Shown here piece after piece: positions 11,061 to 64,000 of a DNA stretch of 64,000 nucleotides. Within the stretch, counting starts at the first letter, position 1; each line of letters begins with the position of its first letter. The translations under genes were made by a program, and so were the position numbers. The notes beneath the pieces were generated by a model. That model was not told the origin of the DNA. It saw only the letters and a list, made by a program, of their open reading frames with translations, and searched no databases. Origin of the DNA: Minisyncoccota bacterium (GTDB lineage: Bacteria; Patescibacteriota; Minisyncoccia; Phycocordibacterales; BOKC01); NCBI GenBank assembly GCA_030583745.1, contig CP129473.1, positions 552,211 to 616,210 of the forward strand. Reading direction: 5' to 3'.

Positions 11061-11088
11061 TTGCGTCTTGTTCCCTCTTTGTTATACT
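11061..11088 (+). promoter_or_regulatory. sigma70-like promoter TTGCGT-N16-TATACT
   Basis: acTTGCGTcttgttccctctttgtTATACTtaa, downstream of the clpP stop. Confidence 0.45.
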
Positions 11089-11094
11089 TAATTT

Positions 11095-11257
11095 GTCTGT
11101 TCTAGGTTTTGCAGGTTGTCCAGTTGGTGCCTGTCGGTCAAAGGTCTGACGCTCAATCGGCTCTAGACCGGCCACCCGCCCTGTGGGGCAAGAAAACGGG
11201 TAAAACTGGCTCCTGCGAATACCGGCCCCGGGGCGTTTCCACGCCCCGGGGCTTTTT
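11095..11257 (+). ncRNA. candidate structured small RNA (~160 nt, GC ~55%) between clpP and rny, ending in a strong intrinsic terminator
   Basis: GC-rich block CAGUUGGUGCCUGUCGGUCAAAGGUCUGACG...GGCCACCCGCCCUGUGGGGCAAG...; terminator GCCCCGGGGCG-TTTCC-CGCCCCGGGGC plus TTTTT at 11225..11257; no ORF. Confidence 0.4.
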
Positions 11258-11474
11258 CCTAGACTTTTTTGAAACTATAGAGTACTATAAAAAAGTACTT
11301 TTATTTTTTTAATTTGATGATTTCGCTTCTTTTTAGCTTTTCTTTCGGATTTTTCCTAAATTTTCAGGTCATGTTCAAGAAAAAACCAATCTTACCAAAT
11401 TCTTTACTTCCTTTTTAGGATTTTTCTGCGTTAGAAAATAGAAAGTTCAGAAGAAAGCGAATTCATTCGCTTTT

Positions 11475-13004
11475 ATGTCGTTAAAAATAGTGTTGCTGTT
11501 GCTTATAGCGGCGGGTTTAGCCGGAATCGCTTTTGGCTACTTTTTGCGTTGGATTATTTCACTTGGCAAAAAGGGTTCTGTTGAGCTTGAAATCAAGCAG
11601 AGAATTTTTGAAGCTAATACCGAAGCTAAGAAAATTGTTTCGGAAGCTGAAGAAAAAGCCAGAAAATTTCTTGAAGAAGCAAAAAAAGAAATCAAAGAAA
11701 GAGAGGTTGGAATTAAGAGGCAAGAAGAGAGGTTGATAAAAAAAGAAGAATTTTTGGATAAAAGGCAGGTTGATATAGACAAAGAAGCTGAAAGTATAAG
11801 ACAGAAAGTTGTTGAAGTCAGGGCGATTAAGGATAAAGTTGATGAGGTTTTGAAACAACGTCAATCGGAGCTTGAGAAAATAAGTCAATTAAGCAAGGAC
11901 GAGGCCAGAAAGGAACTTTTTGCTTCTGTTGAGAAAGAGAGCGAAGAAGATTTGGTTGCCCGGATGCAAAAACTTGAATCCCAAGCAAATGAGCGCTTGG
12001 AGAGAAAGGCGAAAGATATTTTAGCTACTACGATTCAGAGGTTGGCGTCTTCGGTTTCTTCAGACATTATGACCACAAACGTTGTAATTCCTTCTGATGA
12101 AGTGAAGGGTAAAATTATCGGCAAAGAAGGGCGTAATATCAAGGCCTTTGAGCGGGTAACTGGCGTTGAAGTTATAATTGATGACACACCGGGCTCTATC
12201 ACTCTTTCTTCTTTTGACCCTATCCGACGTCAAGTTGCTAAAGTGGCTTTGGAAAATCTTATTTTAGATGGCAGAATTCAGCCGGTAAAAATTGAGGAGA
12301 TGGTTGCTAAATCAAAAGAGGAAATTAGCAAGATAATTAAAGAAAAAGGTGAACAAGCGGCTTACGAATGCGGGGTTTTGAATCTTGATCCAAGAATTAT
12401 TATGATTCTAGGCCGACTCCATTTCCGTACCAGTTATGGTCAAAACGTGCTCCAACACTCAATTGAAATGACCCATATTGCTGGAATGCTTGCCGAAGAG
12501 CTTGGGGCAGACATTGCTGTAGCTAAAGCCGGCGCTCTTCTACACGATATCGGCAAAGCCCTTGACCATGAAGTAGCCGGTAGCCACGTCGAGATCGGAC
12601 GCAGAATTCTTCAAAAGTTTGGCGCTAGCGAAGAGATTATAAAAGCTATGCAGGCCCATCATGGTGAATACCCTTACGAGACCATAGAGTCAATAATCGT
12701 TCAGGTGGCTGATGCTATTTCTGGGGGACGCCCGGGCGCCAGAAGAGATACGGTGGAAAACTATTTGAAACGCCTTGGAGAGCTTGAGGCAATAGCCAAT
12801 TCATTTAAGGGGGTTGAAAAATCTTACGCTCTGCAAGCCGGAAGAGAGATCAGGATTTTTGTTACTCCAGATCAAGTTTCTGATTTAGATGCCCAAAAAA
12901 TGGCTAGAGATATAGCTTTAAGAGTTGAAAATGAGCTAAAATATCCGGGTGAAATAAGAGTAACTGTTATTAGAGAAACTAGAGTTGTAGAATATGCTCG
13001 GTAG
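11475..13004 (+). CDS. rny: ribonuclease Y
   Basis: N-terminal TM helix, coiled coil, KH domain (VIPSDEVKGKIIGKEGRNIKAFE) and HD domain (LLHDIGK). Confidence 0.9.
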   Translation: MSLKIVLLLLIAAGLAGIAFGYFLRWIISLGKKGSVELEIKQRIFEANTEAKKIVSEAEEKARKFLEEAKKEIKEREVGIKRQEERLIKKEEFLDKRQVDIDKEAESIRQKVVEVRAIKDKVDEVLKQRQSELEKISQLSKDEARKELFASVEKESEEDLVARMQKLESQANERLERKAKDILATTIQRLASSVSSDIMTTNVVIPSDEVKGKIIGKEGRNIKAFERVTGVEVIIDDTPGSITLSSFDPIRRQVAKVALENLILDGRIQPVKIEEMVAKSKEEISKIIKEKGEQAAYECGVLNLDPRIIMILGRLHFRTSYGQNVLQHSIEMTHIAGMLAEELGADIAVAKAGALLHDIGKALDHEVAGSHVEIGRRILQKFGASEEIIKAMQAHHGEYPYETIESIIVQVADAISGGRPGARRDTVENYLKRLGELEAIANSFKGVEKSYALQAGREIRIFVTPDQVSDLDAQKMARDIALRVENELKYPGEIRVTVIRETRVVEYAR

Positions 13005-13194
13005 GGGTCAGCAGTAGAGAGGATATCAGATAATAATTTTTTCCTGGAACGTCTAGATTTGAATTGTGAAGAACACTTGCTCTTAAAAAACCTTGATATA
13101 TAATGTTTTTTGAGCTATAAAGCAAGAAAGCTTTGTGGAATAAGGAAAAGTCGAATTTCCTTTCTGACAATTTATCAGTAAAAATCGTTTTACT

Positions 13195-13467
13195 ATGAAT
13201 AAAGCATCAATTGTGGAGGCCGTTCACGCCAAGATCGGTGGTACCAAAGTTCAAGCCGAGCAGGCCGTTGATACGGTAGTTGATTCAATTATTAGTGCCT
13301 TGAAACAAGGTAACGAAGTTTCTATTGCCGGCCTCGGTATCTTTTCAGTTAAAACTCGCGCCGCAAGAACCGCTCGAAATCCTCGCACCGGCGAGAGTAT
13401 TCAGGTTCCTTCAATGAAGGTTCCTAAGTTTAGAGCCGCCAAAGGTCTTAAAGACGCTGTAAAATAA
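13195..13467 (+). CDS. hup: DNA-binding protein HU
   Basis: 90 aa; the GFGxF arm motif appears as GLGIFSVKTRAARTARNPRTGE and PKFRAAKGLKDAV. Confidence 0.9.
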   Translation: MNKASIVEAVHAKIGGTKVQAEQAVDTVVDSIISALKQGNEVSIAGLGIFSVKTRAARTARNPRTGESIQVPSMKVPKFRAAKGLKDAVK

Positions 13468-13507
13468 CGGCTCAAGAGAAAAGGAATTTCCATAAGGTCT
13501 GCAAAAA

Positions 13508-13536
13508 CATCCTGCTAAAAGCAGGATGTTTTTGTT
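13508..13536 (+). terminator. rho-independent terminator after hup
   Basis: CATCCTGC-TAAAA-GCAGGATG hairpin followed by TTTTTGTTTT. Confidence 0.7.
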
Positions 13537-13538
13537 TT

Positions 13539-13982
13539 GGTGCGGGATGGGAGAATCGGTCACAAATATTTTGCTTCGCAAAATTTCGCTACCCCGTCTC
13601 GCTCTCGCCTTCGGCGAGAAGCTCCGACCTTCGATTCTCCACGCAGGCAAAGCAGTTTGCCTGCTCATCCCTTCCTCACTACGTTCGGTGCGGGATGGGA
13701 GAATCGGTCACAAATATTTTGCTTCGCAAAATTTCGCTACCCCGTCTCGCTCTCGCCTTTGGCGAGAAGCTCCGACCTTCGATTCTCCACGCAGGCAAAG
13801 CAGTTTGCCTGCTCATCCCTTCCTCACTACGTTCGGTGCGGGATGGGAGAATCGGTCACAAATATTTTGCTTCGCAAAATTTCGCTACCCCGTCTCGCTC
13901 TCGCCTTTGGCGAGAAGCTCCGACCTTCGATTCTCCACGCAGGCAAAGCAGTTTGCCTGCTCATCCCTTCCTCACTACGTTC
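13539..13982. repeat. 3 tandem copies of a 148-bp unit; each unit begins with the 20-nt 3' end of the adjacent tRNA-Gly(UCC)
   Basis: Unit starts at 13539, 13687 and 13835. They are near-identical, with one difference seen (ccttcgg in the first unit, cctttgg in the later two). The first 20 nt of each (ggtgcgggatgggagaatcg) equal the reverse complement of the tRNA 3' end at 13983..14002. Confidence 0.9.
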
Positions 13983-14055
13983 GGTGCGGGATGGGAGAAT
14001 CGAACTCCCGACCGCGGTTTGGAAAACCGCTATTATACCATTTAACTAATCCCGC
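13981..14055 (-). tRNA. tRNA-Gly (anticodon UCC)
   Basis: The minus-strand sequence GCGGGAT-TA-GTTAAATGGTATAAT-A-GCGGT-TTTCCAA-ACCGC-GGTC-GGGAG-TTCGATT-CTCCC-ATCCCGC-A-CC folds as a cloverleaf. The 7-nt anticodon loop TTTCCAA gives UCC. The terminal A of CCA is not encoded. Confidence 0.85.
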
Positions 14056-14082
14056 CCTTTTTCTAAACTCTAAAATACTAGC

Positions 14083-14806: not shown

Positions 14807-14944
14807 ACGAAACGAAGTGGGGTGAGGGGTGAGCAAGCCAACTTCTTGGCCTGTGTTCGGAATAGAACGATGGAGCATGTTATGAGGGTGGGAAACACTC
14901 TCGGTGTCTCGATCAAATAAAGATTTGGTTTCTATCTAATTTTT

Positions 14945-15556: not shown

Positions 15557-15628
15557 GTGCGGGTAGGGAGAATCGAACTCCCGTCTGATCCTTGGCAAGG
15601 ACCTGTCATACCACTAAACTATACCCGC
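15557..15628 (-). tRNA. tRNA-Gly (anticodon GCC)
   Basis: Minus-strand GCGGGTA...GGTCC-TTGCCAA-GGATC...GGGAG-TTCGATT-CTCCC-TACCCGC-A; the anticodon loop gives GCC. Confidence 0.85.
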
Positions 15629-15901
15629 AGTATCATTAAAACTTTTAACTTGTAAAAGTTAACGATAACCATAATAACAGAATAATAAATTCATTGTCCA
15701 GAGTAATTTGTTGTTAGTTTTGGTTATCGGTCATCATTTATTAGTTATTATAAACAATGTTTTTCTTTGTCGGAGTTCGGATTACTGAAATTCTAACGAA
15801 TTTCAGTCTTGGCGGCAAATTCTTTGTTCTTTTAAATTATTAAAAATGAAAAGACCACCGTTCGCTTTCGCTACTAGGCGGCCTGGCTGTGGAGGGATGT
15901 T

Positions 15902-16351
15902 CTACTCGTTCATTCCCACCATCTTCTTGAGCTCATGCAGTAAGCTCTTCTTCGGATTGGGATTGAGGTCGTTGCTGACGTCCCAACTTGCACCCGAGTG
16001 GATGATATGCAGGATGCGCTCACGCAACTTCATCACATCCTTCGCCGAAGTGCCCTGCACGGTTAAGATCAAGTTTCGAGAGCCGAACCGCAGAAGATGC
16101 TGATCGTTCTGTTCGTACTCCTTGAACCCATTGCGACACACTTGTCCATGTGCGTTGCCGAGGTAGAAGTAAGCTTCCAACGGCTCCTGGGGGCCGCGCC
16201 AACCCTCTCGCGGATCTGTGGAAGAGACATTAATCCCCATCCTCCAACTCACAGTCATCCCCTCCGGAACGACGAAGTCATCCGGCAGGGTGACGAACGA
16301 GAGTTTGCGGACGACTTCTCCTTCGCGATTCAAAAGAACTAGACTCGACAT
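15902..16351 (-). CDS. hypothetical 149-aa protein in a GC-rich (~55%) island; no recognisable family
   Basis: Uninterrupted 149-codon ORF; strong ribosome-binding site (AAAGGAG-7nt-ATG); sigma70-like promoter upstream; composition unlike the host. Confidence 0.6.
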   Translation of the reverse strand: MSSLVLLNREGEVVRKLSFVTLPDDFVVPEGMTVSWRMGINVSSTDPREGWRGPQEPLEAYFYLGNAHGQVCRNGFKEYEQNDQHLLRFGSRNLILTVQGTSAKDVMKLRERILHIIHSGASWDVSNDLNPNPKKSLLHELKKMVGMNE

Positions 16352-16440
16352 GGTACTACTCCTTTCTTCTTTGCGTCTTGAGTTGTCCCAAGATCGCTGA
16401 GTGAAGTGAACAAGCCATCATGGTGATTGCTCTAAATATT

Positions 16441-16468
16441 AGTATAGCAATTTATACTAGTTTGTCAA
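16441..16468 (-). promoter_or_regulatory. sigma70-like promoter TTGACA-N16-TATACT driving the GC-rich gene at 15902..16351
   Basis: Minus-strand reading: ccTTGACAaactagtataaattgcTATACTaat. Confidence 0.55.
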
Positions 16469-16547
16469 GGTTTCGTGAAGATAAAAAACAGCCATATTTC
16501 AGGTCATTTTTCACTCAAAAATCCAATGATTAACTTTTCCAACGCGG

Positions 16548-16619
16548 TGCCCCCGGCAGGAATTGAACCCACATCAACCGGTTCGAAGCCGGTTATTCTA
16601 TCCATTAAACTACGGGGGC
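16548..16619 (-). tRNA. tRNA-Arg (anticodon UCG)
   Basis: Minus-strand GCCCCCG-TA-GTTTAATGGATAGAAT-A-ACCGG-CTTCGAA-CCGGT...GGGTTCAATTCC...CGGGGGC-A-CC; the anticodon loop gives UCG. Confidence 0.8.
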
Positions 16620-19233: not shown

Positions 19234-19425
19234 GGCTAAATGATAACACGGATGAAAATGAAAAACCGACCGCCCTTGTGCTTGGCAGTCTTGGATTCGG
19301 CGGAACCCAGTTTCTCTTTGGAGATTAAGATGACCACAAGCGGTGCCCTATTTTTGGCCATTTTTACACACATCCATTAAATCTAGTAAAAAGTGCCAAA
19401 AGTGTTTAGACATTACCTATTTTAA

Positions 19426-19453
19426 TTGACTTTTTGCTTTGTTTTGCTATAAT
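19426..19453 (+). promoter_or_regulatory. sigma70-like promoter TTGACT-N16-TATAAT
   Basis: aatTTGACTttttgctttgttttgcTATAATaaagg, upstream of the GC-rich lipoprotein gene. Confidence 0.55.
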
Positions 19454-19534
19454 AAAGGTAGATTTTTCGAAAACCTCTTGGACCTTCGGCTTGTTGCTGT
19501 TGGTTTCTTGAGAGACAAGAAAAAGGAGCGGGGA

Positions 19535-19789
19535 ATGAAAAGGCAAAGGCAGAAGTCCGCGCCTTTGGCGGCGGCAGGAACGCTACTGTTCGTGGTCGCG
19601 TTCGGTTCCGGCTGCTCAAATGCCGGGGAAGGTGCCTTGTCTGGCGCCGCGCTCGGGGCTCTGGCTGGAATGGGACTTGGGTCCCTTACCGGTAGCATGG
19701 GGCAGGGCGCGGCCGCCGGTGCGATCATCGGTGGCGTCGGGGGAGCAGTCATCGGCGACCAGAACAGTCGCCAGGAAAGGTACCGTTGA
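19535..19789 (+). CDS. OsmB-like glycine-zipper lipoprotein, GC-rich
   Basis: Lipobox LLFVVAFGSG-C-SN; Gly-zipper GALAGMGLGSLTGSMGQGAAAGAIIGGVGGAVIG; ribosome-binding site AAGGAG-6nt-ATG; ~65% GC over the coding region. Confidence 0.7.
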   Translation: MKRQRQKSAPLAAAGTLLFVVAFGSGCSNAGEGALSGAALGALAGMGLGSLTGSMGQGAAAGAIIGGVGGAVIGDQNSRQERYR

Positions 19790-19885
19790 CCCCGGAAGGG
19801 CTGTCCAGACTGAACCGAAAGGTGAAAGTCTGGCAGCCCCATTTTTTTGAATTGATATTTTATTAAATTATGCTAGAATATAGCT

Positions 19886-20158
19886 ATGTTGACAAAGAAT
19901 AAGAAACAAAGGGCCATAAAAGCTGTAAAAATCCATGATTCTGATACTGGGTCCCCGGAAGTTCAGATCGCCATTTTAACAAAAAGGATAGAAGAGCTTT
20001 CTGGTCATTTAAAGAAAAACAATAAAGACAATCATTCAAGAAGAGGTCTTTTGGGTCTAGTTGCTAAACGCCAAAAGCATATGAATTATCTTGCCAAAAA
20101 AAATCCGGCCAGATATAGGTCTGTTTTAAAAAAGTTAGAACTTAAAAAGGTTAAATAA
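19886..20158 (+). CDS. rpsO: 30S ribosomal protein S15
   Basis: 90 aa; HDSDTGSPEVQIAILTKRI...LSGHLKKNNKDNHSRRGLL matches S15. Confidence 0.9.
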   Translation: MLTKNKKQRAIKAVKIHDSDTGSPEVQIAILTKRIEELSGHLKKNNKDNHSRRGLLGLVAKRQKHMNYLAKKNPARYRSVLKKLELKKVK

Positions 20159-21508: not shown

Positions 21509-22218
21509 TGATCAAACAAAAACATCTTTTTATCACTATTCTTGTTTTGGGTCTGTTCACTCTATCTTTACTTGCTGTAGCAGACACCACGAATTCTACA
21601 CAATCTCTTATTTCTAATTCTGAAACAGAAAAAGATGTTGTGGAGGGTAAATCAAAAACCACTAGTTCTAGCGACCCGATTCTCCCAATAATTACTGATA
21701 CACAAAAGCCAGCAACAACCTATACTCACCCAGAACTCGGTTATTCTTTTGAGTATTTATCAGATTGGTTGCTCGGCACTTATAAAAGCAACGGCTATGA
21801 GGCAGTAGGACTATGGGACCCCGTAGCACAACAGCAAGAGGGCGCGGAAGGCCATCTCATACAAGGGGCGAAGATTGAAATATCCACCTGCAACTGCGCT
21901 CCAATAAGTTCTTTCAAAAACACAATCGTAGAACGAACCGGAAAAGGCCCTGAAACAATAACCAGTGTTTCTGAATCAACCCTTAATATTTATAAGGACC
22001 AAACACCAGTATCAGTTGTAAGAGTAGATTACAAAACAGAACTCGGGGGAGGTAAAAGCGTATATTTTGTTGGTAGAGATGGATTGCTTTATGTGCTCAC
22101 TTTAGGGATTCCGAATCTTGAAACTTTGGGAACTGGCCAACTTCAAGAATACAGGTCTGTTTTTGAGGACGTGATTCAATCATTTACCTTTAGCGAAATT
22201 GCTTATGAAAACCACTAA
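21505..22218 (+). CDS. hypothetical secreted protein
   Basis: Signal-peptide-like N-terminus; 237 aa; start and stop overlap the neighbouring genes. Confidence 0.5.
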   Translation: MMIKQKHLFITILVLGLFTLSLLAVADTTNSTQSLISNSETEKDVVEGKSKTTSSSDPILPIITDTQKPATTYTHPELGYSFEYLSDWLLGTYKSNGYEAVGLWDPVAQQQEGAEGHLIQGAKIEISTCNCAPISSFKNTIVERTGKGPETITSVSESTLNIYKDQTPVSVVRVDYKTELGGGKSVYFVGRDGLLYVLTLGIPNLETLGTGQLQEYRSVFEDVIQSFTFSEIAYENH

Positions 22219-25200
22219 GATATTAAGCATAATTTTTGGAACACTCATTTTCTTTGCTGTAGTTTTATCTGTTTTTGCCAACCCAAGAATATTATATCTA
22301 CCTTTTACTGATCTTGAAGTTTTTCTCAAGCACGGATGGTACTATGATGAACAGGAAACAGATGAGCATAAAGGAATAGATTATTTCAAAGGACAGTCAG
22401 GAAACTGGCAAGAGTTTGAAATTCTCGCTGTGGCGGGAGGAGTAGCTGAGTATAGACCAAATGGTAGTCCAACGTGGGGTAATTATGTTGTTATTGACCA
22501 TCAAACCGGCTCACCCCCTTATTATACCGTTTACGCTCATCTAGAAAGCTCACCCTTACCCGCTTATACACAAACGGCAGTTAATGAAGGTGATTTAATA
22601 GGTATTGCTGGTGCTACTGGGTTCACCGATCCACCGGGAACAGTTCATCTACATCTTGAATGGTCAAAGGACGGAATAGGGCAGTTTGGTACTAAACTTG
22701 ATCCTTATGGGATTAAAAAATATTACACATATTATCCTGGTTATCCAAATTTTATAGATTGTGGCATTGACCTTCAAAATCCAGGTGTTTTCTGGTGGAC
22801 AGAATGTCCGCCGATTCCACCTGGTGGAGGCGGGGATGATCCACTTCCGGTAATAAATGTTTCCGGAAATATCACCGAAGACACAACATGGAAAGCGGGG
22901 TATGTGTATTTAATTCAGGGGTCAGTGACGGTGGTTGAAAATGTAACTTTAACTTTAGAGCCCGGAGTAATCGTCAAATTTCAAAACACCTCCTCCCGCT
23001 TCAACATCTACGGAAACCTCTACGCCCAAGGAACCCAACAAAACAAAATCCACTTCACCTCATACAAAGACGATACGGTCGGCGGTGATTCAAACGGAGA
23101 TGGCAACAATTCATCGCCGGCTCCCAGCAATTGGCGGCAAATCACTGTCTTTGAGAATGGTTCAGCCGATCTTTCCCACGCCGTCTTGCGCTATGGCGGC
23201 TACACTTGCGCCTACTGCGGCATCAATCCCGGAGGTCTTTTAGTGGACGGCGGACAACTTACCCTCGCCGACACTTTGATTGAGAAGAACAATTATGGGA
23301 TATATTTCAAAAACATCACCGGCACTACAAGCATTTCCAACTCCACCATTTCTAACAACACTTCTTATGGCATCTTCTCAACCGGCGGCAACCACGACAT
23401 ATATCTCTCCAACTCCACCATCTCCAACCATTCCGATACCGGTATCTATGCTTCCGCCAGCGCCACAACTACTGTTTCGCTTTTGAACAATACTTTCCAG
23501 AACAACCAAACAAGAGACGGTTACTTTTCCATTTCCAACATTAACTTCATCAACCAAGGGAACACTACTTCAGGCACCGGAGGCAACGGCTTCCACATTT
23601 CAGGCACTCTTTTAGGCAACCAAATCTGGAACCCTGGTGTCCCTTACATTATCAGCACCGTCACCTTACCGGCCGATACCACTCTCACAATTAACCCCAA
23701 TACCATCGTCAAATTTCAAAACACCTCCTCCCGCTTCAACATCTACGGAAACCTCTACGCCCAAGGAACCCAACAAAACAAAATCCACTTCACCTCATAC
23801 AAAGACGATACGGTCGGCGGTGATTCAAACGGAGATGGCAACAATTCATCGCCGGCTCCCAGCAATTGGCGGCAAATCACTGTCTTTGAGAATGGTTCAG
23901 CCGATCTTTCCCACGCCGTCTTGCGCTATGGCGGCTACACTTGCGCCTACTGCGGCATCAATCCCGGAGGTCTTTTAGTGGACGGCGGACAACTTACCCT
24001 CGCCGACACTTTGATTGAGAAGAACAATTATGGGATATATTTCAAAAACATCACCGGCACTACAAGCATTTCCAACTCCACCATTTCTAACAACACTTCT
24101 TATGGCATCTTCTCAACCGGCGGCAACCACGACATATATCTCTCCAACTCCACCATCTCCAACCATTCCGATACCGGTATCTATGCTTCCGCCAGCGCCA
24201 CAACTACTGTTTCGCTTTTGAACAATACTTTCCAGAACAACCAAACAAGAGACGGTTACTTTTCCATTTCCAACATTAACTTCATCAACCAAGGGAACAC
24301 TACTTCAGGCACCGGAGGCAACGGCTTCCACATTTCAGGCACTCTTTTAGGCAACCAAATCTGGAACCCTGGTGTCCCTTACATTATCAGCACCGTCACC
24401 TTACCGGCCGATACCACTCTCACAATTAACCCCAATACCATCGTCAAATTTCAAAACACCTCCTCCCGCTTCAACATCTACGGAAACCTCTACGCCCAAG
24501 GAACCCAACAAAACAAAATCTACTTCACCTCATACAAAGACGATACGGTCGGCGGTGATTCAAACGGAGATGGCAACAATTCATCGCCGGCTCCCAGCAA
24601 TTGGCGGCAAATCACTGTCTTTGAGAATGGTTCAGCCGATCTTTCCCACGCCGTCTTGCGCTATGGCGGCTACACTTGCGCCTACTGCGGCATCAATCCC
24701 GGAGGTCTTTTAGTGGACGGCGGACAACTTACCCTCGCCGACACTTTGATTGAGAAGAACAATTATGGGATATATTTCAAAAACATCACCGGCACTACAA
24801 GCATTTCCAACTCCACCATTTCTAACAACACTTCTTATGGCATCTTCTCAACCGGCGGCAACCACGACATATATCTCTCCAACTCCACCATCTCCAACCA
24901 TTCCGATACCGGTATCTATGCTTCCGCCAGCGCCACAACTACTGTTTCGCTTTTGAACAATACTTTCCAGAACAACCAAACAAGAGACGGTTACTTTTCC
25001 ATTTCCAACATTAACTTCATCAACCAAGGGAACACTACTTCAGGCACCGGAGGCAACGGCTTCCACATTTCAGGCACTCTTTTAGGCAACCAAATCTGGA
25101 ACCCTGGTGTCCCTTACATTATCAGCACCGTCACCTTACCGGCCGATACCACTCTCACAATTAACCCCAATACCATCGTCAAATTTCAAAACACCTCCTC

Positions 25201-25756
25201 CCGCTTCAACATCTACGGAAACCTCTACGCCCAAGGAACCCAACAAAACAAAATCTACTTCACCTCTTACCGAGACGACACAATCGGAGGTGACTCCAAC
25301 GGAGATGGCAACAATTCATCGCCGGCTCCCAGCAATTGGCGGCAAATCACTGTCTTTGAGAATGGTTCAGCCGATCTTTCCCACGCCGTCTTGCGCTATG
25401 GCGGCTACACTTGCGCCTACTGCGGCATCAATCCCGGAGGTCTTTTAGTGGACGGCGGACAACTTACCCTCGCCGACACTTTGATTGAGAAGAACAATTA
25501 TGGGATCTACCGGCGGACTAGCGGTAATGTTTCCGTCACTCAAAGCTCAATTAAAGAGAATACCTCCTACGGCATATATCACACCGGCACCGGGACAACG
25601 ACCGCCACTTCAAACTGGTGGGGAGATCCGAGCGGGCCTTATCATCCGCAAAACAATCCAAACGGACAAGGCGACAGAGTCTCAAATAATGTGGAATTCA
25701 GCTCCTGGTTAATTGAGGATCCTTTTTGGAAACAATTTATATTTCCCAAAAAGTAG
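22199..25756 (+). CDS. giant secreted protein: N-terminal M23 (LytM) peptidase domain followed by tandem right-handed beta-helix (NosD/pectin-lyase-like) repeats
   Basis: HKGIDYF...VVIDHQ...HLHLEW M23 zinc-site motifs. Three identical 245-aa repeats rich in NxT/S and I-Y-G/S-N-T-I-S-N rungs. Confidence 0.75.
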   Translation: MLMKTTKILSIIFGTLIFFAVVLSVFANPRILYLPFTDLEVFLKHGWYYDEQETDEHKGIDYFKGQSGNWQEFEILAVAGGVAEYRPNGSPTWGNYVVIDHQTGSPPYYTVYAHLESSPLPAYTQTAVNEGDLIGIAGATGFTDPPGTVHLHLEWSKDGIGQFGTKLDPYGIKKYYTYYPGYPNFIDCGIDLQNPGVFWWTECPPIPPGGGGDDPLPVINVSGNITEDTTWKAGYVYLIQGSVTVVENVTLTLEPGVIVKFQNTSSRFNIYGNLYAQGTQQNKIHFTSYKDDTVGGDSNGDGNNSSPAPSNWRQITVFENGSADLSHAVLRYGGYTCAYCGINPGGLLVDGGQLTLADTLIEKNNYGIYFKNITGTTSISNSTISNNTSYGIFSTGGNHDIYLSNSTISNHSDTGIYASASATTTVSLLNNTFQNNQTRDGYFSISNINFINQGNTTSGTGGNGFHISGTLLGNQIWNPGVPYIISTVTLPADTTLTINPNTIVKFQNTSSRFNIYGNLYAQGTQQNKIHFTSYKDDTVGGDSNGDGNNSSPAPSNWRQITVFENGSADLSHAVLRYGGYTCAYCGINPGGLLVDGGQLTLADTLIEKNNYGIYFKNITGTTSISNSTISNNTSYGIFSTGGNHDIYLSNSTISNHSDTGIYASASATTTVSLLNNTFQNNQTRDGYFSISNINFINQGNTTSGTGGNGFHISGTLLGNQIWNPGVPYIISTVTLPADTTLTINPNTIVKFQNTSSRFNIYGNLYAQGTQQNKIYFTSYKDDTVGGDSNGDGNNSSPAPSNWRQITVFENGSADLSHAVLRYGGYTCAYCGINPGGLLVDGGQLTLADTLIEKNNYGIYFKNITGTTSISNSTISNNTSYGIFSTGGNHDIYLSNSTISNHSDTGIYASASATTTVSLLNNTFQNNQTRDGYFSISNINFINQGNTTSGTGGNGFHISGTLLGNQIWNPGVPYIISTVTLPADTTLTINPNTIVKFQNTSSRFNIYGNLYAQGTQQNKIYFTSYRDDTIGGDSNGDGNNSSPAPSNWRQITVFENGSADLSHAVLRYGGYTCAYCGINPGGLLVDGGQLTLADTLIEKNNYGIYRRTSGNVSVTQSSIKENTSYGIYHTGTGTTTATSNWWGDPSGPYHPQNNPNGQGDRVSNNVEFSSWLIEDPFWKQFIFPKK
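22970..25505. repeat. 735-bp tandem repeat: 3 essentially identical copies (22970, 23705, 24440) plus a diverged partial 4th copy (25175..~25505)
   Basis: Period 735 nt (245 codons). Copies 1-2 differ from copies 3-4 by one SNP (CAC/TAC, His/Tyr). The 4th copy carries a ~40-nt patch with 9 mostly synonymous substitutions. Confidence 0.95.
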
Positions 25757-31665: not shown

Positions 31666-31793
31666 GTTAAATTTATTTTGATGAGAATAATAAAGGCTCC
31701 CCGGGGCAAAGCCACAGGGTATTGTCAGAACCCGCTTTACTCGTCCATTCGCGTGACAGAGCCGCGCGGTATTGAACCTATATTAGCTCCTCG

Positions 31794-31877
31794 GCCGTCG
31801 GCACGATGGAGTCGGCCTTTGGCCAGACGAAGTCAGCCGTCGGCACGATGGAGTCGACCTTTGGCCAGACGAAGTCG
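31794..31877. repeat. 2 tandem copies of a 42-nt GC-rich unit in the leader of the downstream gene
   Basis: gccgtcggcacgatggagtcg[g/a]cctttggccagacgaagtc[a/g]; units at 31794..31835 and 31836..31877. Confidence 0.85.
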
Positions 31878-31887
31878 GCTCGGAAAT

Positions 31888-33213
31888 GTGAAAGCTTTGC
31901 TTTCCCATTTCTCTCGCTCTACGTCGCTAATAAAAGGAAGAGTTTTTGTTTATTTTGCTTTTCCCGTTATTTTTTCTATTCTATTTTCTGTCGGTCTAAA
32001 TTCTGCCAATGCCCAGATTGGTGGTGGGGTTCCAACTTTTACAAAACTTTATGGCGCCGCTTGGTCTTCTAATATCGGCTGGATAAGTTTCAATTCTTGC
32101 GAGGTGGATTTGTCGGAAGGAGCGGAGGACTGCCCACCGGGGGTTTCGTATTCTGTCCAAGTAAATAATGAGACAGGTCTTATGACCGGCACCGCTTGGT
32201 CTCCCAATGTTGGCTGGCTACAATTTGGCGGTTTGTCTGGTTTTCCTGAAGGCGGTGGTACTGAAGCGACCAATGCCAAAATTGTGCTTTCACAGGGAGC
32301 GTCCTTCGGGAAGGTTGAGGGCTGGGCTAGATTTTTAGCTGGTACGGATGACCCGGATGACGGCTGGGATGGTTGGGTTTCAATGTCAGGAACTAATTAT
32401 CCATCCCCGCAAAGTAATGGTAACGGCGGAGTAACTTATAATGCGGAGCTCGGTAAATTACTTGGTGCTGCTTGGGGTGGGCCGGTTGTCGGTTGGATTT
32501 ATTTTGGCGATACGACGGGTGATTGGCCGAATGTTTGGTATGGCTTGCCAGACGCAGTGCCGGACGAGTTTGATTATTCTCTAGACTCTTCGTCTCCTAA
32601 TTATGAAATTTCAATTCCTGCGGGTGGATCAGGAGATGTTACTGTTTCTATAGATTTAGAGAGTGGGGAACCAGAAAGCGTAGAATTGTCGTATCCGGTA
32701 AATCCCAACGACGGCATCTCTGTTTCTAAAGTTGGTGGTGATGAAAATCCTTGTGTACCAATGCAAAATGACAGTTGCGAGATTATTCTTCGGATAAGTG
32801 TTGGGGGTGATGTGGAGGAAGGAGAATACGAATTTATTGTTTCCGGAACTCCATTAGATAAAAACACAACGGTGAGATTTTCTGTGCCCGCTCCGCAACC
32901 GCCACCGCCGGTCGTAAATTGCTCGGCTGAAGGTGGAATAGCCGGCGGGAAATTCTTCTTTTTAGACGAAACGCCAGTTAATTGGAGTGCTTCCATATCT
33001 ATAACAGGAGAGGGTGAGCCGGAAGAGCCGGAATATGTTTGGCGGAGCGATGGTATAGTTGTGGCTGATTGTGATGATGACGACGAGTGCGAATTGTCTT
33101 ATACGACCGTCGGTCCAAAATTGACTGAAATATCAATTGACGGCGGTTTGGAATTCTATCAATGTGACCCAATATTTATAATCCCGAGAAGTATCTTCTT
33201 TATAGAAATTTAA
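31888..33213 (+). CDS. secreted repeat protein with a GxAWSxNxGW(I/L)xF motif repeated three times; start position uncertain
   Basis: The ORF is open from 31633, but its first ~85 codons cover a GC-rich repeat region (SARWSRPLARRS x2) that reads like non-coding sequence. In-frame GTG (31888) or TTG (31897) would give a signal peptide (...VFVYFAFPVIFSILFSVGLNSANA-Q). Confidence 0.5.
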   Translation: MKALLSHFSRSTSLIKGRVFVYFAFPVIFSILFSVGLNSANAQIGGGVPTFTKLYGAAWSSNIGWISFNSCEVDLSEGAEDCPPGVSYSVQVNNETGLMTGTAWSPNVGWLQFGGLSGFPEGGGTEATNAKIVLSQGASFGKVEGWARFLAGTDDPDDGWDGWVSMSGTNYPSPQSNGNGGVTYNAELGKLLGAAWGGPVVGWIYFGDTTGDWPNVWYGLPDAVPDEFDYSLDSSSPNYEISIPAGGSGDVTVSIDLESGEPESVELSYPVNPNDGISVSKVGGDENPCVPMQNDSCEIILRISVGGDVEEGEYEFIVSGTPLDKNTTVRFSVPAPQPPPPVVNCSAEGGIAGGKFFFLDETPVNWSASISITGEGEPEEPEYVWRSDGIVVADCDDDDECELSYTTVGPKLTEISIDGGLEFYQCDPIFIIPRSIFFIEI

Positions 33214-42855: not shown

Positions 42856-42880
42856 GCGCTAGGCGTTAGGAATTTAGTAA

Positions 42881-43121: not shown

Positions 43122-43127
43122 TTTAGG

Positions 43128-43156
43128 AGATTACCACCGTGCCTTTTTCTTGTCAA
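43128..43156 (-). promoter_or_regulatory. sigma70-like promoter TTGACA-N17-TAATCT
   Basis: Minus-strand reading: tctagaTTGACAagaaaaaggcacggtggTAATCTcc. Confidence 0.5.
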
Positions 43157-43197
43157 TCTAGACCTTGCCGGGGATTGAATACTCGCGTTAGATTTTA

Positions 43198-43374
43198 CTT
43201 TTAAAATAGAAAACCCGTCGCGAGGGCATAACTCGCGACGGGTTGTGGAGAAAATGATTAAAGACAGAGGATTCTCCTGTACGGAAGGTGAATGACTTCT
43301 TCCGCACATCCTCTACCTCTTCGTTCGGGGTCACGGCGCAGGGCACAGCCCCAAATCGCTACCCGAACGCTCTG
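43198..43374 (-). ncRNA. candidate structured small RNA of unknown family (~175 nt) with a consensus promoter and an intrinsic terminator
   Basis: Minus-strand TTGACA-N16-TAGAAT promoter at 43381..43408. Nested helices: GACAGAG/CUCUGUC, CGUUCGGG/CCCGAACG, and a 9-bp GUGCGGAAG/CUUCCGUAC helix. Terminator: an 11-bp stem (CCCGTCGCGAG/CTCGCGACGGG) followed by a U-tract. Confidence 0.5.
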
Positions 43375-43380
43375 TCGAAG

Positions 43381-43408
43381 ATTCTATACCTTTTTTTATT
43401 TTTGTCAA
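43381..43408 (-). promoter_or_regulatory. sigma70-like promoter TTGACA-N16-TAGAAT
   Basis: Minus-strand reading: aaatacTTGACAaaaataaaaaaaggtaTAGAATctt. Confidence 0.55.
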
Positions 43409-43574
43409 GTATTTTCAGCTATCTTTCTTCTCTAAGTAGTTAAAACACGCCTTAAAATAAAGCTTTTACAAGGACTACCCTTGGTACAAGGACTACCCTT
43501 GGATTGGGGGGATTGATTGTCTGACTAAGAATTTTCTAGTATTTCCCTAAACCCTAAACCCTAGTCTCTAGACT

Positions 43575-48625: not shown

Positions 48626-48680
48626 ATTTTTTAATGAGAGTAAGTAATTTTTACATTATAACATCTATCAATTTTTTAAA

Positions 48681-48945
48681 AAAAGAAAAACCCCACCAAA
48701 AGGCGGGGCGGTGGGACGGGTTTAGGGTGAACGGAAAGTAGTTACGTCATCATGCAGGCAAATGCCCCAGACCATGCTGCAAGTCCGACTGCCCCCACAT
48801 AAATCTCCGGGCAATTCTTCCAGATTGTTGTAAGAAATTTCAGGATCACACCTCCAGCTGTATTTGTCTTGTGCACGTCTAACCTCTTTCTGTTTGTTGG
48901 TGTGTGGGGCAAACACAACGAGTGTTTACCAAGCTCCGTTTATTA
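48681..48945 (-). ncRNA. candidate structured non-coding RNA (GC-rich, ~250 nt) ending in an intrinsic terminator
   Basis: Minus-strand: a TATAAT -10 box near 48946..48951; GC ~55% against a ~38% background; terminator CCCACC...GGTGGG plus a U-tract at 48681..48716. The only ORF (64 aa, GTG start, no ribosome-binding site) is unconvincing. Confidence 0.4.
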
Positions 48946-49020
48946 TAATACATAAAAATCCAATAGTTGTCTATGAGGGGGAGAGGTTGTATTATTATCT
49001 TGATTTTTTATTTTTTTAGA

Positions 49021-49884
49021 ATGTTAGAAACTATTCAAAAGCATTCAAAAATTGCGCTTGTTGTTCTGCTTCTTCTAACAAATGTTTTTATTTGGAGTGT
49101 TGTTTGGTCTTCCGGTAATTCTCAATTTCAAATTTATTTTTTAGATGTCGGTCAAGGAGATGCAATTTTAATAAAATCACCCTCTGGCAATAAAATGTTA
49201 ATTGATGGCGGGCAGAGCGCTTCGGCTTTGATGTTGGCCTTATCTAAAGCTATACCTTTCTATAGTAAAAAGATTGATGTTGTATTGGCAACACACCCGG
49301 ATGCCGATCACATTGGCGGCTTGTCGGAAATTTTCAGGCGTTTTGAGGTGGATTTTGTTATCGATCCGGACGTCTTAGCTGAAACCAGAATTTTTAGGGA
49401 TTTTCAAAATGCAGTTGCCTTGTCTGATTCCCAAAAACTGATAGCAAGAAGAGGTATGAAAATTGATTTGGGCGGTGGGGTTGTTTTTGTTGTCTTGTTT
49501 CCCGACCGAGATGTTTCAGGGCTTAACCCGAATGACGCTTCAATCGTCGGTAAATTATTTTTTGGTGATACAAGTTTTTTGCTTGCGGGCGACGCGCCGA
49601 TAAAAATAGAGGAATATTTGAATTTTTTGGATAATGAATTTTTAGAAAGCGACGTCTTGAAAGTTGGGCATCACGGCTCTCGAACGTCAACTTCCGATGA
49701 TTTTGTTACAGCTGTTAATCCAAAATACGCAATTATTTCGGCTGGTCGTGATAATAGATATGGTCATCCACACAGCGAAGTCTTGGAAATTTTGAAAAAC
49801 ACCGGAACAAAAATCCTCGGCACTTATGACCGCGGTACAATCCTTTTCAAATCCGACGGCCGGCGGTTGGAAATTAGAGATTAA
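49021..49884 (+). CDS. ComEC-type metallo-beta-lactamase-fold domain protein with an N-terminal TM anchor
   Basis: YFLDVGQGDAILI...MLIDGG and HPDADHIGG (HxHxDH) motifs. A separate gene, on the opposite strand from the ComEC channel gene. The start is taken at MLETIQ. Confidence 0.75.
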   Translation: MLETIQKHSKIALVVLLLLTNVFIWSVVWSSGNSQFQIYFLDVGQGDAILIKSPSGNKMLIDGGQSASALMLALSKAIPFYSKKIDVVLATHPDADHIGGLSEIFRRFEVDFVIDPDVLAETRIFRDFQNAVALSDSQKLIARRGMKIDLGGGVVFVVLFPDRDVSGLNPNDASIVGKLFFGDTSFLLAGDAPIKIEEYLNFLDNEFLESDVLKVGHHGSRTSTSDDFVTAVNPKYAIISAGRDNRYGHPHSEVLEILKNTGTKILGTYDRGTILFKSDGRRLEIRD

Positions 49885-49899
49885 TTTAAGTAAATTTAA

Positions 49900-59573: not shown

Positions 59574-59577
59574 ATTT

Positions 59578-60759: not shown

Positions 60760-60763
60760 TTTT

Positions 60764-61200: not shown

Positions 61201-61259
61201 GTTCTGTCGTTTAAAACCACTGGTTTCAAATCATAGAATCCGAAATTTAAAATTAAAAC

Positions 61260-61631: not shown

Positions 61632-61657
61632 CACAAGTTGCCAAGAATATTTGTAAT

Positions 61658-61966: not shown

Positions 61967-61976
61967 TTAAAAGATT

Positions 61977-62510: not shown

Positions 62511-62596
62511 GGATTGGGGTATAGCCAATAGTTCGGGTTTGTTGATTTATCAAATTGAGAATTTTTGATTTCGCATCATTCTGCGCAAAATTTTTA

Positions 62597-62624
62597 TTGA
62601 CAAATAAATTAGTTATGATAGAAT
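62597..62624 (+). promoter_or_regulatory. sigma70-like promoter TTGACA-N16-TAGAAT immediately downstream of rplE
   Basis: tattTTGACAaataaattagttatgaTAGAATag. Confidence 0.55.
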
Positions 62625-62660
62625 AGAAAAGGATGTTATTTTACATTGTCGTTGCAAACG

Positions 62661-62770
62661 GGCAGGAAAATGTGTCTTAAGGACTCATTTTCCTGCCTGT
62701 GTTGGGCTGGATTTCCCGAAAGTGTCGACGGGCCAAGGGGAACTTGGAAAATCGACACAAGTATCTTCGC
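62661..62770 (+). promoter_or_regulatory. structured 5' leader: perfect 12-bp stem hairpin plus a second nested hairpin, upstream of the GC-rich gene
   Basis: GGCAGGAAAATG-tgtcttaaggact-CATTTTCCTGCC; then GTGTCGAC...(CCAAGG-ggaa-CTTGG)...TCGACAC. Confidence 0.5.
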
Positions 62771-62795
62771 CTCCAGGTGAGGCAAGGAGAAAGTC

Positions 62796-63245
62796 ATGAG
62801 GTATCTCAGTGAGAAGCGTCGTCAGCGGTTCGCCCGGGAATTTCCGGGGTTGGATCAGATCCCCGGTTTCAAATGGGCGTCGATCAAGAAGTTCGACGTC
62901 CAGCGTGTCAGTCCGTTCCTTCTTCAGGGAGGAGGGATTATCATGGATGATCACAGAACGGTCTTCTACGTTGTCTACAATGGAGCGATGACGCGCCTGG
63001 ATGCCAATGTGATCTTCGATCCTTCCTCTGATCGGCGGCCGAGCATTTACGTGCGGTCTAATGGAGAGCAGATTTTTCAGATCAGTTCCAGACCGCCAGA
63101 CTTCATCGTTGAGATCCGCAGCGAATGGGATTCCCACGGTAATTCCATTGATGTCTGCATTATCTACAAGGCCGACAAGTTCGACTGGGATGGATACTTC
63201 AAGCGTTTCGAGCCTGGACCGGAGAAGTTCGAGCAGTTCGTCTGA
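62796..63245 (+). CDS. hypothetical 149-aa protein, GC-rich (~54%), no recognisable family
   Basis: Ribosome-binding site AAGGAG-6nt-ATG; uninterrupted ORF; followed by an intrinsic terminator; enterobacterial-style codon choices (CGT, CGG, CTG, CCG). Confidence 0.6.
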   Translation: MRYLSEKRRQRFAREFPGLDQIPGFKWASIKKFDVQRVSPFLLQGGGIIMDDHRTVFYVVYNGAMTRLDANVIFDPSSDRRPSIYVRSNGEQIFQISSRPPDFIVEIRSEWDSHGNSIDVCIIYKADKFDWDGYFKRFEPGPEKFEQFV

Positions 63246-63294
63246 TGACAGCCAGCAACGGCAAAACGTTCTCGATTGACGTCTAAACAATCGA

Positions 63295-63326
63295 AGCCCC
63301 GACCATCTGGCCGGGGTTTTCTTTTG
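63295..63326 (+). terminator. rho-independent terminator
   Basis: AGCCCCGACC-atctg-GCCGGGGTT followed by a T-tract. Confidence 0.65.
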
Positions 63327-63407
63327 TATTTTCCTAAACCCTACACCCCAAACCCTAAACCTCACTGGCTATACCCCAGACCCTATACCCTAATTTAAGA
63401 CCTACGG

Positions 63408-63489
63408 CAAGGTTAAACCTCCCAGAGAAAATACTGCTTAACAAAGCGATATTTTTCTTACACCTAATTGTCAAGGTTTAACCTTGACA
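63408..63489. promoter_or_regulatory. two operator-like palindromes (AGGTTAAACCT at 63410..63420; TGTCAAGGTT-T-AACCTTGACA at 63469..63489) upstream of the terminal membrane-protein gene
   Basis: Perfect 21-nt palindrome and a related 11-nt palindrome ~60 nt apart; a TTGACA -35 box at 63511..63516 follows. Confidence 0.5.
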
Positions 63490-63650
63490 GTGCTTACGCC
63501 TTTATTTTTCTTGACATTGCAATTAAATTGTACTATCCTTAAAAAGGATACGGAAAAACATGTGGTTTTCCGACAAAGTTTGTCATCCGGTTTGCCTAGC
63601 TCCATGTAGGAGTTAGCGCTGAAATAGTCAAGAGACAAAAGGAGATAAAG

Positions 63651-64000
63651 ATGAAGAATCTGTGGATTTGTACGACCAGGATCTTTCTGTTTCAGATCTT
63701 GGTTGGTGGAGTGACGTTCGGTATGACCGGCGATGTTGCACTTGCGGCTACCGCGGTCATCATCATGACCGCCGCCGCGGTCATTGTCACCGCCCTCTCT
63801 GCAATCTCCACAACCGCCACCTACGCTGATCTTTTAACCACTCTTGCCGCTCTCATCGCCGCCTTCGCTGCCCATGCCGCTCTCATCGCCGCTTTCGCCT
63901 TCATCGAACTCGCCGCCTTCGTCATCGCCGCCCTCGTCTTCGTCATCGCCAAAAACGCGAGGGAAAACGGAGCCAAGGAGCCGTTCTGGGCTCTGTGGCT
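63651..64000 (+). CDS. GC-rich hydrophobic (multi-TM, Ala/Ile/Thr-rich) membrane protein, 5' part only; runs off the window end
   Basis: Manual translation from ATG 63651 gives MKNLWICTTRIFLFQILVGGVTFGMTGDVALAATAVIIMTAAAVIVTALSAISTTATYADLLTTLAALIAAFAAHAALIAAFAFIELAAFVIAALVFVIAKNARENG...; ribosome-binding site AAAGGAG-7nt-ATG. Absent from the ORF track because it is incomplete. Confidence 0.55.
   Translation, partial: MKNLWICTTRIFLFQILVGGVTFGMTGDVALAATAVIIMTAAAVIVTALSAISTTATYADLLTTLAALIAAFAAHAALIAAFAFIELAAFVIAALVFVIAKNARENGAKEPFWALW

Follow-up and report, generated by a model that had tools for sequence, protein, structure and literature searches.

How short GC-rich patches came to lie among the housekeeping genes of an AT-rich bacterial chromosome, and whether they share one origin, is the question raised by the DNA analysed here. 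The window, that is the whole stretch of 64 kb on contig CP129473.1, is native chromosome of a bacterium of the Patescibacteria (class Paceibacteria; candidate phyla radiation, CPR) with a guanine-plus-cytosine (GC) content of about 41% and a genome of about 0.69 Mb. The CPR/Patescibacteria have tiny genomes and are mostly uncultured, and their acquisition and expression of genes are poorly known. An earlier note on this DNA had claimed that every GC-rich patch was built alike, from a near-consensus promoter through a structured RNA or an open reading frame (ORF) with a Shine-Dalgarno (SD) site to a hairpin terminator. It had proposed a common origin or mechanism: a co-acquired set of modules, host small RNAs (sRNAs) rich in GC for structural reasons, or artificial or contaminant DNA. 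The results indicated that the patches are probably structured RNA elements together with single-gene cassettes, similar to the 'morons' of phages, which circulate among Paceibacteria.

Composition and expression signals of the patches

GC was calculated in sliding windows of 120 nucleotides (nt), and stretches with GC of at least 0.52 were called; the mean of the 64 kb was 0.408. The GC-rich patches were recovered where the earlier note had placed them, and the units in them were labelled I1 to I8. The patch at 42881-43408 was found to consist of two units and not one (I5a and I5b), and so was that at 62597-64000 (I7 and I8, the latter cut by the window end). The units and the GC-rich stretches at them are as follows.

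I1: 11061-11258, plus strand, stand-alone sRNA gene between clpP and rny; GC-rich stretch 11069-11295, GC 0.51
I2: 15840-16468, minus strand, protein cassette in the slot between tRNA-Gly(GCC) (15557-15628) and tRNA-Arg (16546-16619); GC-rich stretch 15851-16378, GC 0.54
I3: 19426-19848, plus strand, lipoprotein cassette; GC-rich stretch 19464-19860, GC 0.59
I4: 31690-31887, plus strand, GC-rich 5' leader upstream of a secreted-protein gene; GC-rich stretch 31677-31942, GC 0.54
I5a: 43205-43408, minus strand, sRNA gene
I5b: 42878-43156, minus strand, second sRNA gene; GC-rich stretches at I5a/I5b 42745-43130 and 43213-43398, GC 0.55 and 0.52
I6: 48667-49010, minus strand, small-peptide cassette in the divergent intergenic region between sod and a comEC-like gene; GC-rich stretch 48675-48830, GC 0.51
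I7: 62597-63330, plus strand, protein cassette between rplE and rpsZ; GC-rich stretch 62681-63329, GC 0.52
I8: 63397-64000, plus strand, membrane-protein cassette, cut by the window end; GC-rich stretch 63655-64000, GC 0.58

The units occupy seven separate loci, and the cassette sites are intergenic, namely the rplE/rpsZ operon break, the gap separating two tRNAs, and regions between divergent or convergent genes. The GC at third codon positions (GC3) was 0.66-0.69 in the cassette ORFs of I2, I3 and I7, compared with 0.31-0.41 in native genes. The I3 and I8 proteins are rich in glycine and alanine, with a second-position GC (GC2) of 0.55-0.61; those of I2 and I7 have an ordinary amino-acid composition despite their high GC3. 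The ORF mRNAs of I2 and I7 did not fold in excess of shuffled sequences (z = -0.9 and -0.5), so mRNA structure was rejected as the cause of their GC-richness, which is instead a codon-usage signal at the third position. This deviation from the host recurs for homologues of the cassettes in other hosts.

Both strands of the 64 kb were scanned for TTGACA-N16-18-TATAAT by consensus matching, each site being scored out of 12. Only four sigma-70 sites reached at least 11/12, and each of them stands immediately ahead of a patch and is oriented towards it; two further units have sites of 10/12.

16468, minus strand, I2: at least 11/12
19426, plus strand, I3: at least 11/12
43408, minus strand, I5a: at least 11/12
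62597, plus strand, I7: at least 11/12
48973, minus strand, I6: 10/12
63511, plus strand, I8: 10/12

The promoter signal lies in this co-location with the patches and not in the count, because shuffled sequences give as many sites in total. The near-consensus promoter which had been claimed for each patch was thus found at these six units (10-11/12). The claim of a hairpin terminator stood for all units except I4: a GC-rich hairpin followed by a T-run ends I1, I2, I3, I5a, I5b, I6, I7 and I8. Sigma-70-type promoters and intrinsic terminators are found at native genes too, but are weaker and AT-richer there. A possible shared initial-transcribed motif, TWAAAAGGATR, was looked for and was not enriched. 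The uniform layout was confirmed for most units but not for every patch, as I4 is a leader only, and GC-rich stretches that had not been listed lack it: 13528-14059 (tandem tRNA-like repeats), a repeat ORF at 22.8-25.7 kb, and the native-gene parts 2593-3190 and 12465-12790.

The sharpest contrast was seen at translation starts. When AGGAG or GGAGG was sought 4-10 nt before the true gene starts of the 64 kb, it was found only at 16351 (minus strand), 19535, 62796 and 63651, which are the ORF starts of I2, I3, I7 and I8, and at none of about 65 native starts. That native genes lack canonical SD sequences was therefore borne out; their upstream sequence is A/T-rich, with SD absent in most. Even a 4-mer SD precedes only 5/73 ORF starts, and two of these five lie inside patches (the I2 start and a dubious ORF, 42968-43309, in I5). 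An SD-led cassette amid SD-less native genes was also found at the Vogelbacteria locus L117 and at L142 and L120, and the Harrisonbacteria locus L115 uses SD natively throughout. The anti-SD motif is missing in about half of Parcubacteria (Tsurumaki et al. 2022, PMC9297842). If the present host has none, the retained AAGGAG needs another explanation; if it has one, SD is reserved for accessory genes. At the native rpsO (19852-19888) and trigger factor (27363-27325, minus strand) genes only about 6-9 nt separate the -10 box from the ATG, as would be expected of leaderless mRNAs.

Protein cassettes and structured RNAs

The I2 cassette runs from its promoter (TTGACA-16-TATACT, 16468-16441, with TG) through a leader of about 85 nt and an ORF of 149 amino acids (aa; 16351-15902), with AAGGAG 7 nt before the ATG, to a terminator hairpin GGCCGCC..GCGAAAGC..GGTGGTC with a T-run at about 15883-15840. 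The slot is occupied in other strains by an AT-rich gene of 225 aa or a gene of 444 aa. The family comprises 73 clusters at 50-75% identity, all from CPR (Uhr-, Harrison-, Lipton- and Vogelbacteria). The homologues at L115, L117 and L118 stand in three unrelated genomic contexts, and the promoter, about 45 nt of leader and the peculiar terminator GGCCGCC-UAGUAGCGAAAGCGAAC-GGCGGCC accompany homologues elsewhere. Synonymous divergence (dS) between the window and the Harrisonbacteria copy was 0.86, compared with saturated values of 2.6-3.9 for ribosomal proteins between the window and a much closer species. I2 thus combines a patchy distribution and different contexts with a divergence incongruent with that of the host. 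Because the contexts are unrelated, the flanking untranslated regions (UTRs) are conserved and dS is unsaturated against a distant lineage, horizontal transfer is argued for, which indicates that I2 belongs to a horizontally exchanged, Paceibacteria-wide family.

In several strains (e.g. L093, 1366-2423) the window segment 15459-16544 has been exchanged whole for an unrelated segment, which carries a different tRNA-Gly(GCC) allele and the AT-rich 225-aa gene with an N-terminal helix-turn-helix-like region. Twenty viral contigs matched a 16-mer of the I2 terminator; they were set aside, as this is about the chance number by estimate rather than by computation.

The I7 cassette showed a different pattern of conservation. 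Its promoter (TTGACA-16-TAGAAT, 62597-62624, with TG) is followed by a structured leader (62631-62795), AAGGAG (62784-62789), an ORF of 149 aa (62796-63245) and a 3'UTR (63246-63330) with a conserved hairpin and the terminator. Across strains the promoter and the leader of about 165 nt are nearly invariant; the ORF is a recombination mosaic, 74-94% identical between strains, compared with 95-99% for the flanks. Within the species the dS between I7 alleles was 0.84-1.0, about 30 times the 0.03 of rplE and fusA, with a ratio of nonsynonymous to synonymous divergence (dN/dS) of about 0.3. Since the dS of the alleles so far exceeds that of the core genes, the alleles must be old and brought together by recombination, not the product of a mutation burst.

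Only five members of the I7 family were found among 1.8 billion representatives. A homologue of 43% identity is present in a second species, also between rplE and rpsZ, with a GC3 of 0.67 in a host of GC3 0.22-0.32. Between this species and the window the leader is 90%, the 3'UTR 85-87% and the adjacent ribosomal genes 67% identical. A metagenome scan with the leader core revealed a third species, in which the leader, a homologue of 187 aa and the 3'UTR lie beside recJ instead. Two elements of the leader do not vary, the central hairpin (GUGUCGAC..CCAAGGGGAACUUGG..UCGACAC) and the stem GCCUC..GAGGC-AAGGAG, and the first hairpin is variable; with two compensatory pairs only, the variation is too little for covariation support. 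The leader folds with z = -5.69. As in riboswitches and other cis-acting leaders, it is strongly folded, far more conserved than the ORF downstream, and its invariant hairpins end in a stem beside the SD; it differs from them in matching no Rfam family, and no ligand or binding protein is known. The I7 leader is accordingly presented as a candidate cis-regulatory RNA of a new, possibly riboswitch-like kind, standing before a fast-diversifying protein.

A covariance model of the leader found no further copies in about 1.07 Mb, which included 80 other Paceibacteria rplE loci. One contig of 50% GC (L147 2853-2881, Ga0310691_10001135) carries only the 22-nt leader core CGACGGGCCAAGGGGAACTTGG in an unrelated context; it looks unrelated and could be a coincidence or a fragment. 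Across 73 loci (L007-L086) of Paceibacteria genomes and strains the rplE-rpsH gap varied between 219 bp and 5.4 kb, so this junction seems to be a general insertion hotspot. A separate promoter, TTGACA-16-TATTCT, stands ahead of rpsZ in this species and is predicted to restart transcription.

The I8 cassette has a promoter TTGACA-17-TATCCT (63511-63539), a leader, AAGGAG at 63639-63644 and an ORF from 63651. Its complete form at L003 (5600-6040) encodes an alanine-rich protein of 146 aa with about four transmembrane segments and is followed by a terminator. The unit is bounded by a direct repeat of 26-29 bp, the first copy of which lies at 63371-63396, and is cleanly absent from L004. The family has three members; the paralogue P0077 (45% identity, GC3 0.76) is found at another locus of a host with 41% GC, and its promoter and leader are similar. 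Around these units C-rich, telomere-like CCCTAAA/CCCTATA repeats were observed five times against 0.3 expected (43545-43563, 63332-63392; also L003 6100-6260). They follow the I7 and I8 terminators, precede the rpsZ start (in species L142 as well) and lie downstream of a HIT gene, and the direct repeat bounding I8 is part of this motif.

I6 carries a promoter-like TAGACA-17-TATTAT (48973-48945), AAGAGG, and a terminator at 48709-48690. The ORF chosen, from GTG 48873 to 48742, would encode a peptide of 43 aa with a hydrophobic C-terminal helix. The segment is swapped for about 59 bp in L088 and L090 and is present in L087 and L091. In type I toxin-antitoxin systems the ORF of a small membrane toxin is overlapped by an antisense sRNA gene; the I6 peptide has the small size and hydrophobic helix, and an antisense promoter/terminator pair was not convincingly seen in the scan. 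I6 lies immediately upstream of the comEC-like Lactamase_B gene (start region 48967-49023), which has a different N-terminus in a strain without I6. This gene probably starts at ATG 49021 (MLETIQKH...) and not at TTG 48967, the start of the longest ORF.

The promoter of I3 (TTGACT-16-TATAAT, 19426-19453, with TG), its leader, its AAGGAG (19523-19528) and its terminator (hairpin 19798-19839 with T-run) enclose an ORF at 19535-19789 with GC 0.65 and GC3 0.68. The product of 84 aa has the lipobox GSGC and a glycine zipper and matches Pfam Gly-zipper_Omp (E = 9e-9), the sole Pfam match among the cassette proteins. I3 was present in 13/13 related contigs at 92.7-100% identity, with flanks at 97-99%.

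Further strain-specific GC-rich inserts (153-aa; 79-aa + Band7; 297-aa) have the same promoter, SD and terminator layout. The 153-aa cassette is found upstream of I3 in some strains, where it replaces 19291-19415; the 79-aa + Band7 operon of another strain has a GC3 of 0.61-0.66, and its Band7 protein matches phrog_11908 at 4e-48. The insertion points used in other strains and empty in the window are 14872-14876, 49860-49890 and 19291-19415. An AT-rich Fic + HTH_17 gene pair follows tRNA-Pro in other strains. For the cassette proteins of the window PHROGs gave nothing significant (two weak matches for I3, E about 0.004), and PADLOC defence models gave no match for 10 cassette proteins.

The remaining units are RNA elements, and no credible ORF was found in I1, I5a or I5b. 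The promoter of I1, TTGCGT (11061-11066)-16-TATACT (11083-11088) with an extended -10 TG, precedes an RNA at about 11096-11258 whose 3' end is a GC hairpin of 13 bp (11224-11253) with a T-run. Its minimum free energy (MFE) was -82.5 kcal/mol (z = -5.65 against shuffles), and it is kept in 10/10 related contigs at 95-100% identity. I5a has the promoter TTGACA-16-TAGAAT (43408-43381), an RNA at about 43375-43205 with terminator stem 43244-43212, an MFE of -75.5 kcal/mol (z = -5.66) and, as its sole ORFs, frames running through the terminator. I5b, with TTGACA (43156-43151)-17-TAATCT (43133-43128), an RNA of about 240 nt and a terminator hairpin at 42913-42888 with T-run, folds most strongly (MFE -120 kcal/mol, z = -7.10). 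Both are present in two related contigs, where I5b is 98.5-100% identical. No Rfam family matched I1 at the gathering threshold or at E<=5, nor did any match I5a or I5b; permissive Rfam searches over I1-I3, I5, I7 and I8 returned only sub-threshold matches (His_leader, NsiR1, GA-cis, others) which were terminator-like or at chance level. Since their folding far exceeds that of shuffles, the GC of I1, I5a and I5b is structural. The proposal of structurally GC-rich host sRNAs thus fits only the non-coding units, namely these three, the I4 leader and the cassette leaders, the fold scores covering I1, I5a, I5b and the I7 leader (z = -5.6 to -7.1). It does not fit the cassette ORFs.

I4 is not an autonomous unit. 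It holds a 42-nt tandem duplication (31794-31876) and lacks both a terminator of its own and a strong SD; the gene downstream likely starts at GTG 31888. The leader was present in the one related contig examined, and 63 nt of its repeat are missing in strain L096. The 18-nt sequence TACAAGGACTACCCTTGG stands twice, as a perfect direct repeat, at 43467-43502, some 60-95 nt ahead of the I5a promoter, and could be a regulator binding site.

Origin of the units

The observed patterns of composition, signals, polymorphism, conservation and dS are best described, with fair assurance, by two kinds of element. In the RNA elements (I1, I5a, I5b and the I4 leader) a high GC would be the price of forming stable helices where the genome is AT-rich. 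The cassettes I2, I3, I6, I7 and I8 would each be a full transcription unit from a near-consensus sigma-70 promoter to an intrinsic terminator, with a conserved structured leader, AAGGAG (AAGAGG in I6) and a GC-rich ORF between, and would encode a small envelope or membrane protein or an orphan soluble protein. They would form an accessory gene pool across Paceibacteria, in which genes are gained, lost or swapped for other alleles by recombination. DNA may enter through ComEC and the type IV pilus and then recombine homologously in conserved flanks or UTRs. The SD sites and GC3 bias would reflect an origin in, or upkeep by exchange with, GC-richer lineages that use SD, where the core genes of the present host start without it. 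Transcription, translation, transfer route and function of the units are predicted here from sequence features. Uptake-type genes are present in the window (comEC with ComEC/Competence, T2SSE/F, pilin and type IV pilus genes), beside the S10-spc ribosomal cluster (51.1-62.5 kb), tuf, fusA, clpP, rny, pgk, tpiA and sod; four tRNAs pass the Rfam gathering threshold.

Several results weigh against circulating cassettes. Neither a mobility gene or integrase nor a consistent target-site signature was found; direct repeats flank only I8, and I2 and I6 have the appearance of replaced segments. All related strains sampled carry I1, I3, I5 and I7, which so behave as fixed rather than mobile, with I2, I6 and I8 present or absent between strains. 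The I2 family was not found in IMG/VR and no vector is known for it. In three species with a GC3 of their own of about 0.22-0.4, I7 keeps a GC3 of 0.61-0.67 despite saturated dS, and such a lasting excess is unexplained by a simple, recent, un-ameliorated import. Sites of at least 10/12 number 28, no higher than in shuffles, and the promoters, terminators and SD sites are consensus matches only.

That all patches are native genes or sRNAs inherited vertically, their GC being purely functional (RNA structure or Gly/Ala-rich proteins), was considered improbable. It would fit the strong structure of I1, I5a and I5b and their presence in every related contig checked (10 for I1, 2 for I5a and I5b), the presence of I4 in its related contig, the composition of the I3 and I8 proteins, and the synteny of I7 in the second species. 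It does not accommodate I2 and I7, which combine high GC3 with ordinary proteins and ORF mRNAs that do not fold in excess, nor the largely demonstrated insertion or deletion of I2, I6 and I8 between strains, the homologues of I2, I7 and I8 at different loci in other genomes, the unsaturated dS of I2, and the confinement of SD to cassette ORFs. Less likely again would be a single co-acquired set, the patches being scattered remnants of one GC-rich CPR mobile element, plasmid or phage. The cassettes do agree in GC3 and architecture, the Band7 insert of one strain resembles a phage family, and the I8 paralogue repeats a similar promoter and leader at another locus. But the shared architecture is not proof of one origin, as any autonomously expressed insert needs it. 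All-against-all blastn revealed no sequence shared among the units except the C-rich 'tail' repeats, and the I2 and I7 proteins are unrelated. The gene tables held no phage, plasmid or integrase genes near the units, and PHROGs, PADLOC and IMG/VR gave the negative results already described. Frequency among strains and phylogenetic spread also differ, I6 being confined to this species, I7 known from three and I2 from dozens. With no shared sequence, seven loci, and unequal population frequency and phylogenetic depth, the common origin proposed in the earlier note was not upheld; its acquired modules survive as the protein cassettes, supported by polymorphism, other contexts and dS out of line, and not as one set.

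An assembly chimera, contaminant reads or engineered DNA would agree with the near-textbook promoter, ribosome-binding site and terminator layout and the sharp compositional edges, which look 'designed'. The patches, however, were found with identical junctions in at least 10 independent samples and in three NCBI metagenome-assembled genomes (MAGs; GCA_013328895.1, GCA_013328875.1, GCA_016860785.1), the assemblies of more than 10 independent SRA runs carrying them at 93-100% identity. One SRA assembly is 100% identical to the window across 16.7 kb, and the I2 and I3 proteins are identical to proteins on a 691,769-bp 'Candidatus Paceibacterota bacterium' contig. The assemblies differ by natural single-nucleotide polymorphisms, indels and allelic mosaics, homologous cassettes are present in further Patescibacteria species sampled by unrelated studies, and a search of 185,579 species representatives gave only Patescibacteria/Paceibacteria MAGs as the nearest relatives of rplE (58-71% identity). 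Because so many independent assemblies carry the same patches with the same junctions, and the I2 protein is matched exactly, an artificial or contaminant origin is refuted, and its probability is regarded as negligible.

Beyond the mixture of RNA elements and circulating cassettes, a wider reading joins the results, and it is put forward only tentatively, as possible but doubtful. According to it, Paceibacteria carry undescribed chromosomal, moron-like mobile cassettes with UTRs of dual role and a separate translation regime. The cassettes may move between lineages as whole promoter-to-terminator units; conserved structured UTRs might act as regulatory RNAs and double as homology arms when hypervariable ORFs are swapped; and the GC-rich, SD-led ORFs may form a separately translated 'accessory regime' where core genes have dropped SD initiation.

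Relation to known systems and other features of the window

The moron concept of phage biology is reportedly due to Hendrix and Juhala. A moron has by definition a promoter and a terminator of its own and a deviant GC (Cumby, Davidson & Maxwell 2012, PMC3594210). The present units resemble them as single genes between conserved syntenic genes, with a predicted promoter and factor-independent terminator of their own, GC unlike their neighbours, presence or absence among relatives and, often, small membrane or envelope products. Extra DNA relative to syntenic relatives was seen for I2, I6 and I8, not for the units present in every strain. They differ in lying in a bacterial (CPR) chromosome among housekeeping genes (ribosomal operon, tRNAs), and several are RNA genes. 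The neighbours are clpP, rny, tRNAs, rpsO, pgk, sod and rplE/rpsZ, with no phage genes among them, so a prophage reading was rejected together with that of synthetic DNA. Because the phage setting is lacking, the units are called moron-like and not morons.

Integron arrays have an adjacent IntI tyrosine recombinase and an attI site, attC sites at the 3' ends of the cassettes, and cassettes that are mostly promoterless. The present cassettes are likewise compact single-ORF units of foreign composition, may stand in tandem (I7, I8) and, in I8, have a repeated 3' sequence at the boundaries. They differ in carrying their own promoters and terminators and in being dispersed at seven loci rather than in a single array. 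No integrase domain was found in the precomputed Pfam tables of the genes flanking the units, without a scan of every ORF in the window, and no attC-type imperfect inverted repeats were found, the 3' ends being ordinary terminators. With no IntI, no attC and a promoter in every cassette, the integron reading was rejected.

Gene transfer detected in Patescibacteria is mostly within the group (Gios et al. 2025, PMC12455944). The 73 all-CPR clusters of I2 fit such exchange, recognised in both cases by composition and context. That work reportedly deals with islands and transfers in general, and is not known to describe promoter-to-terminator single-gene units, an SD contrast with the host or conserved UTRs. 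The host also resembles other SD-poor systems (Bacteroidetes; Parcubacteria, PMC9297842), which have A/T-rich or leaderless core starts and few strong-SD genes; what differs is that the SD-led minority here coincides exactly with the GC-rich accessory cassettes.

Known biology is not overturned by these results, since both the moron concept and horizontal gene transfer between Patescibacteria were already established. Their main value lies in the coincidence of SD and cassettes in an SD-less CPR genome, in the conserved I7 leader with its hypervariable ORF, and in the structured RNAs, of which at least four (I1, I5a, I5b and the I7 leader) are new candidates. The signature of high GC3, SD, consensus promoter and terminator could locate the flexible genome in other CPR MAGs. 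I7 places a hypervariable small protein in the ribosomal spc cluster, with alleles far older than the core divergence of the species, as is typical where genes interact or are in conflict with hosts or phages.

Two repeat arrays were also noted in the window. At 13539-14002 (minus strand), beside tRNA-Gly(UCC) (13983-14055), lie three tandem units of 148 nt with 99% identity, and the 3' end of the neighbouring tRNA-Gly (..GAUUCUCCCAUCCCGCACC) is repeated at the end of each. Folding of one unit gave a multi-branched, tRNA-like structure (-64 kcal/mol, z = -5.7); the unit is present in single copy in strains L102 and L103 and matches Rfam GA-cis below threshold (21.6 bits vs 34.7). It may be a tRNA-derived sRNA array. 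The ORF of 1185 aa at 22199-25756 (Peptidase_M23 / beta-helix, GC3 0.53) contains tandem repeats of 735 bp; the versions in related strains are of 448, 710, 713 and 723 aa, so the copy number of the repeat varies.

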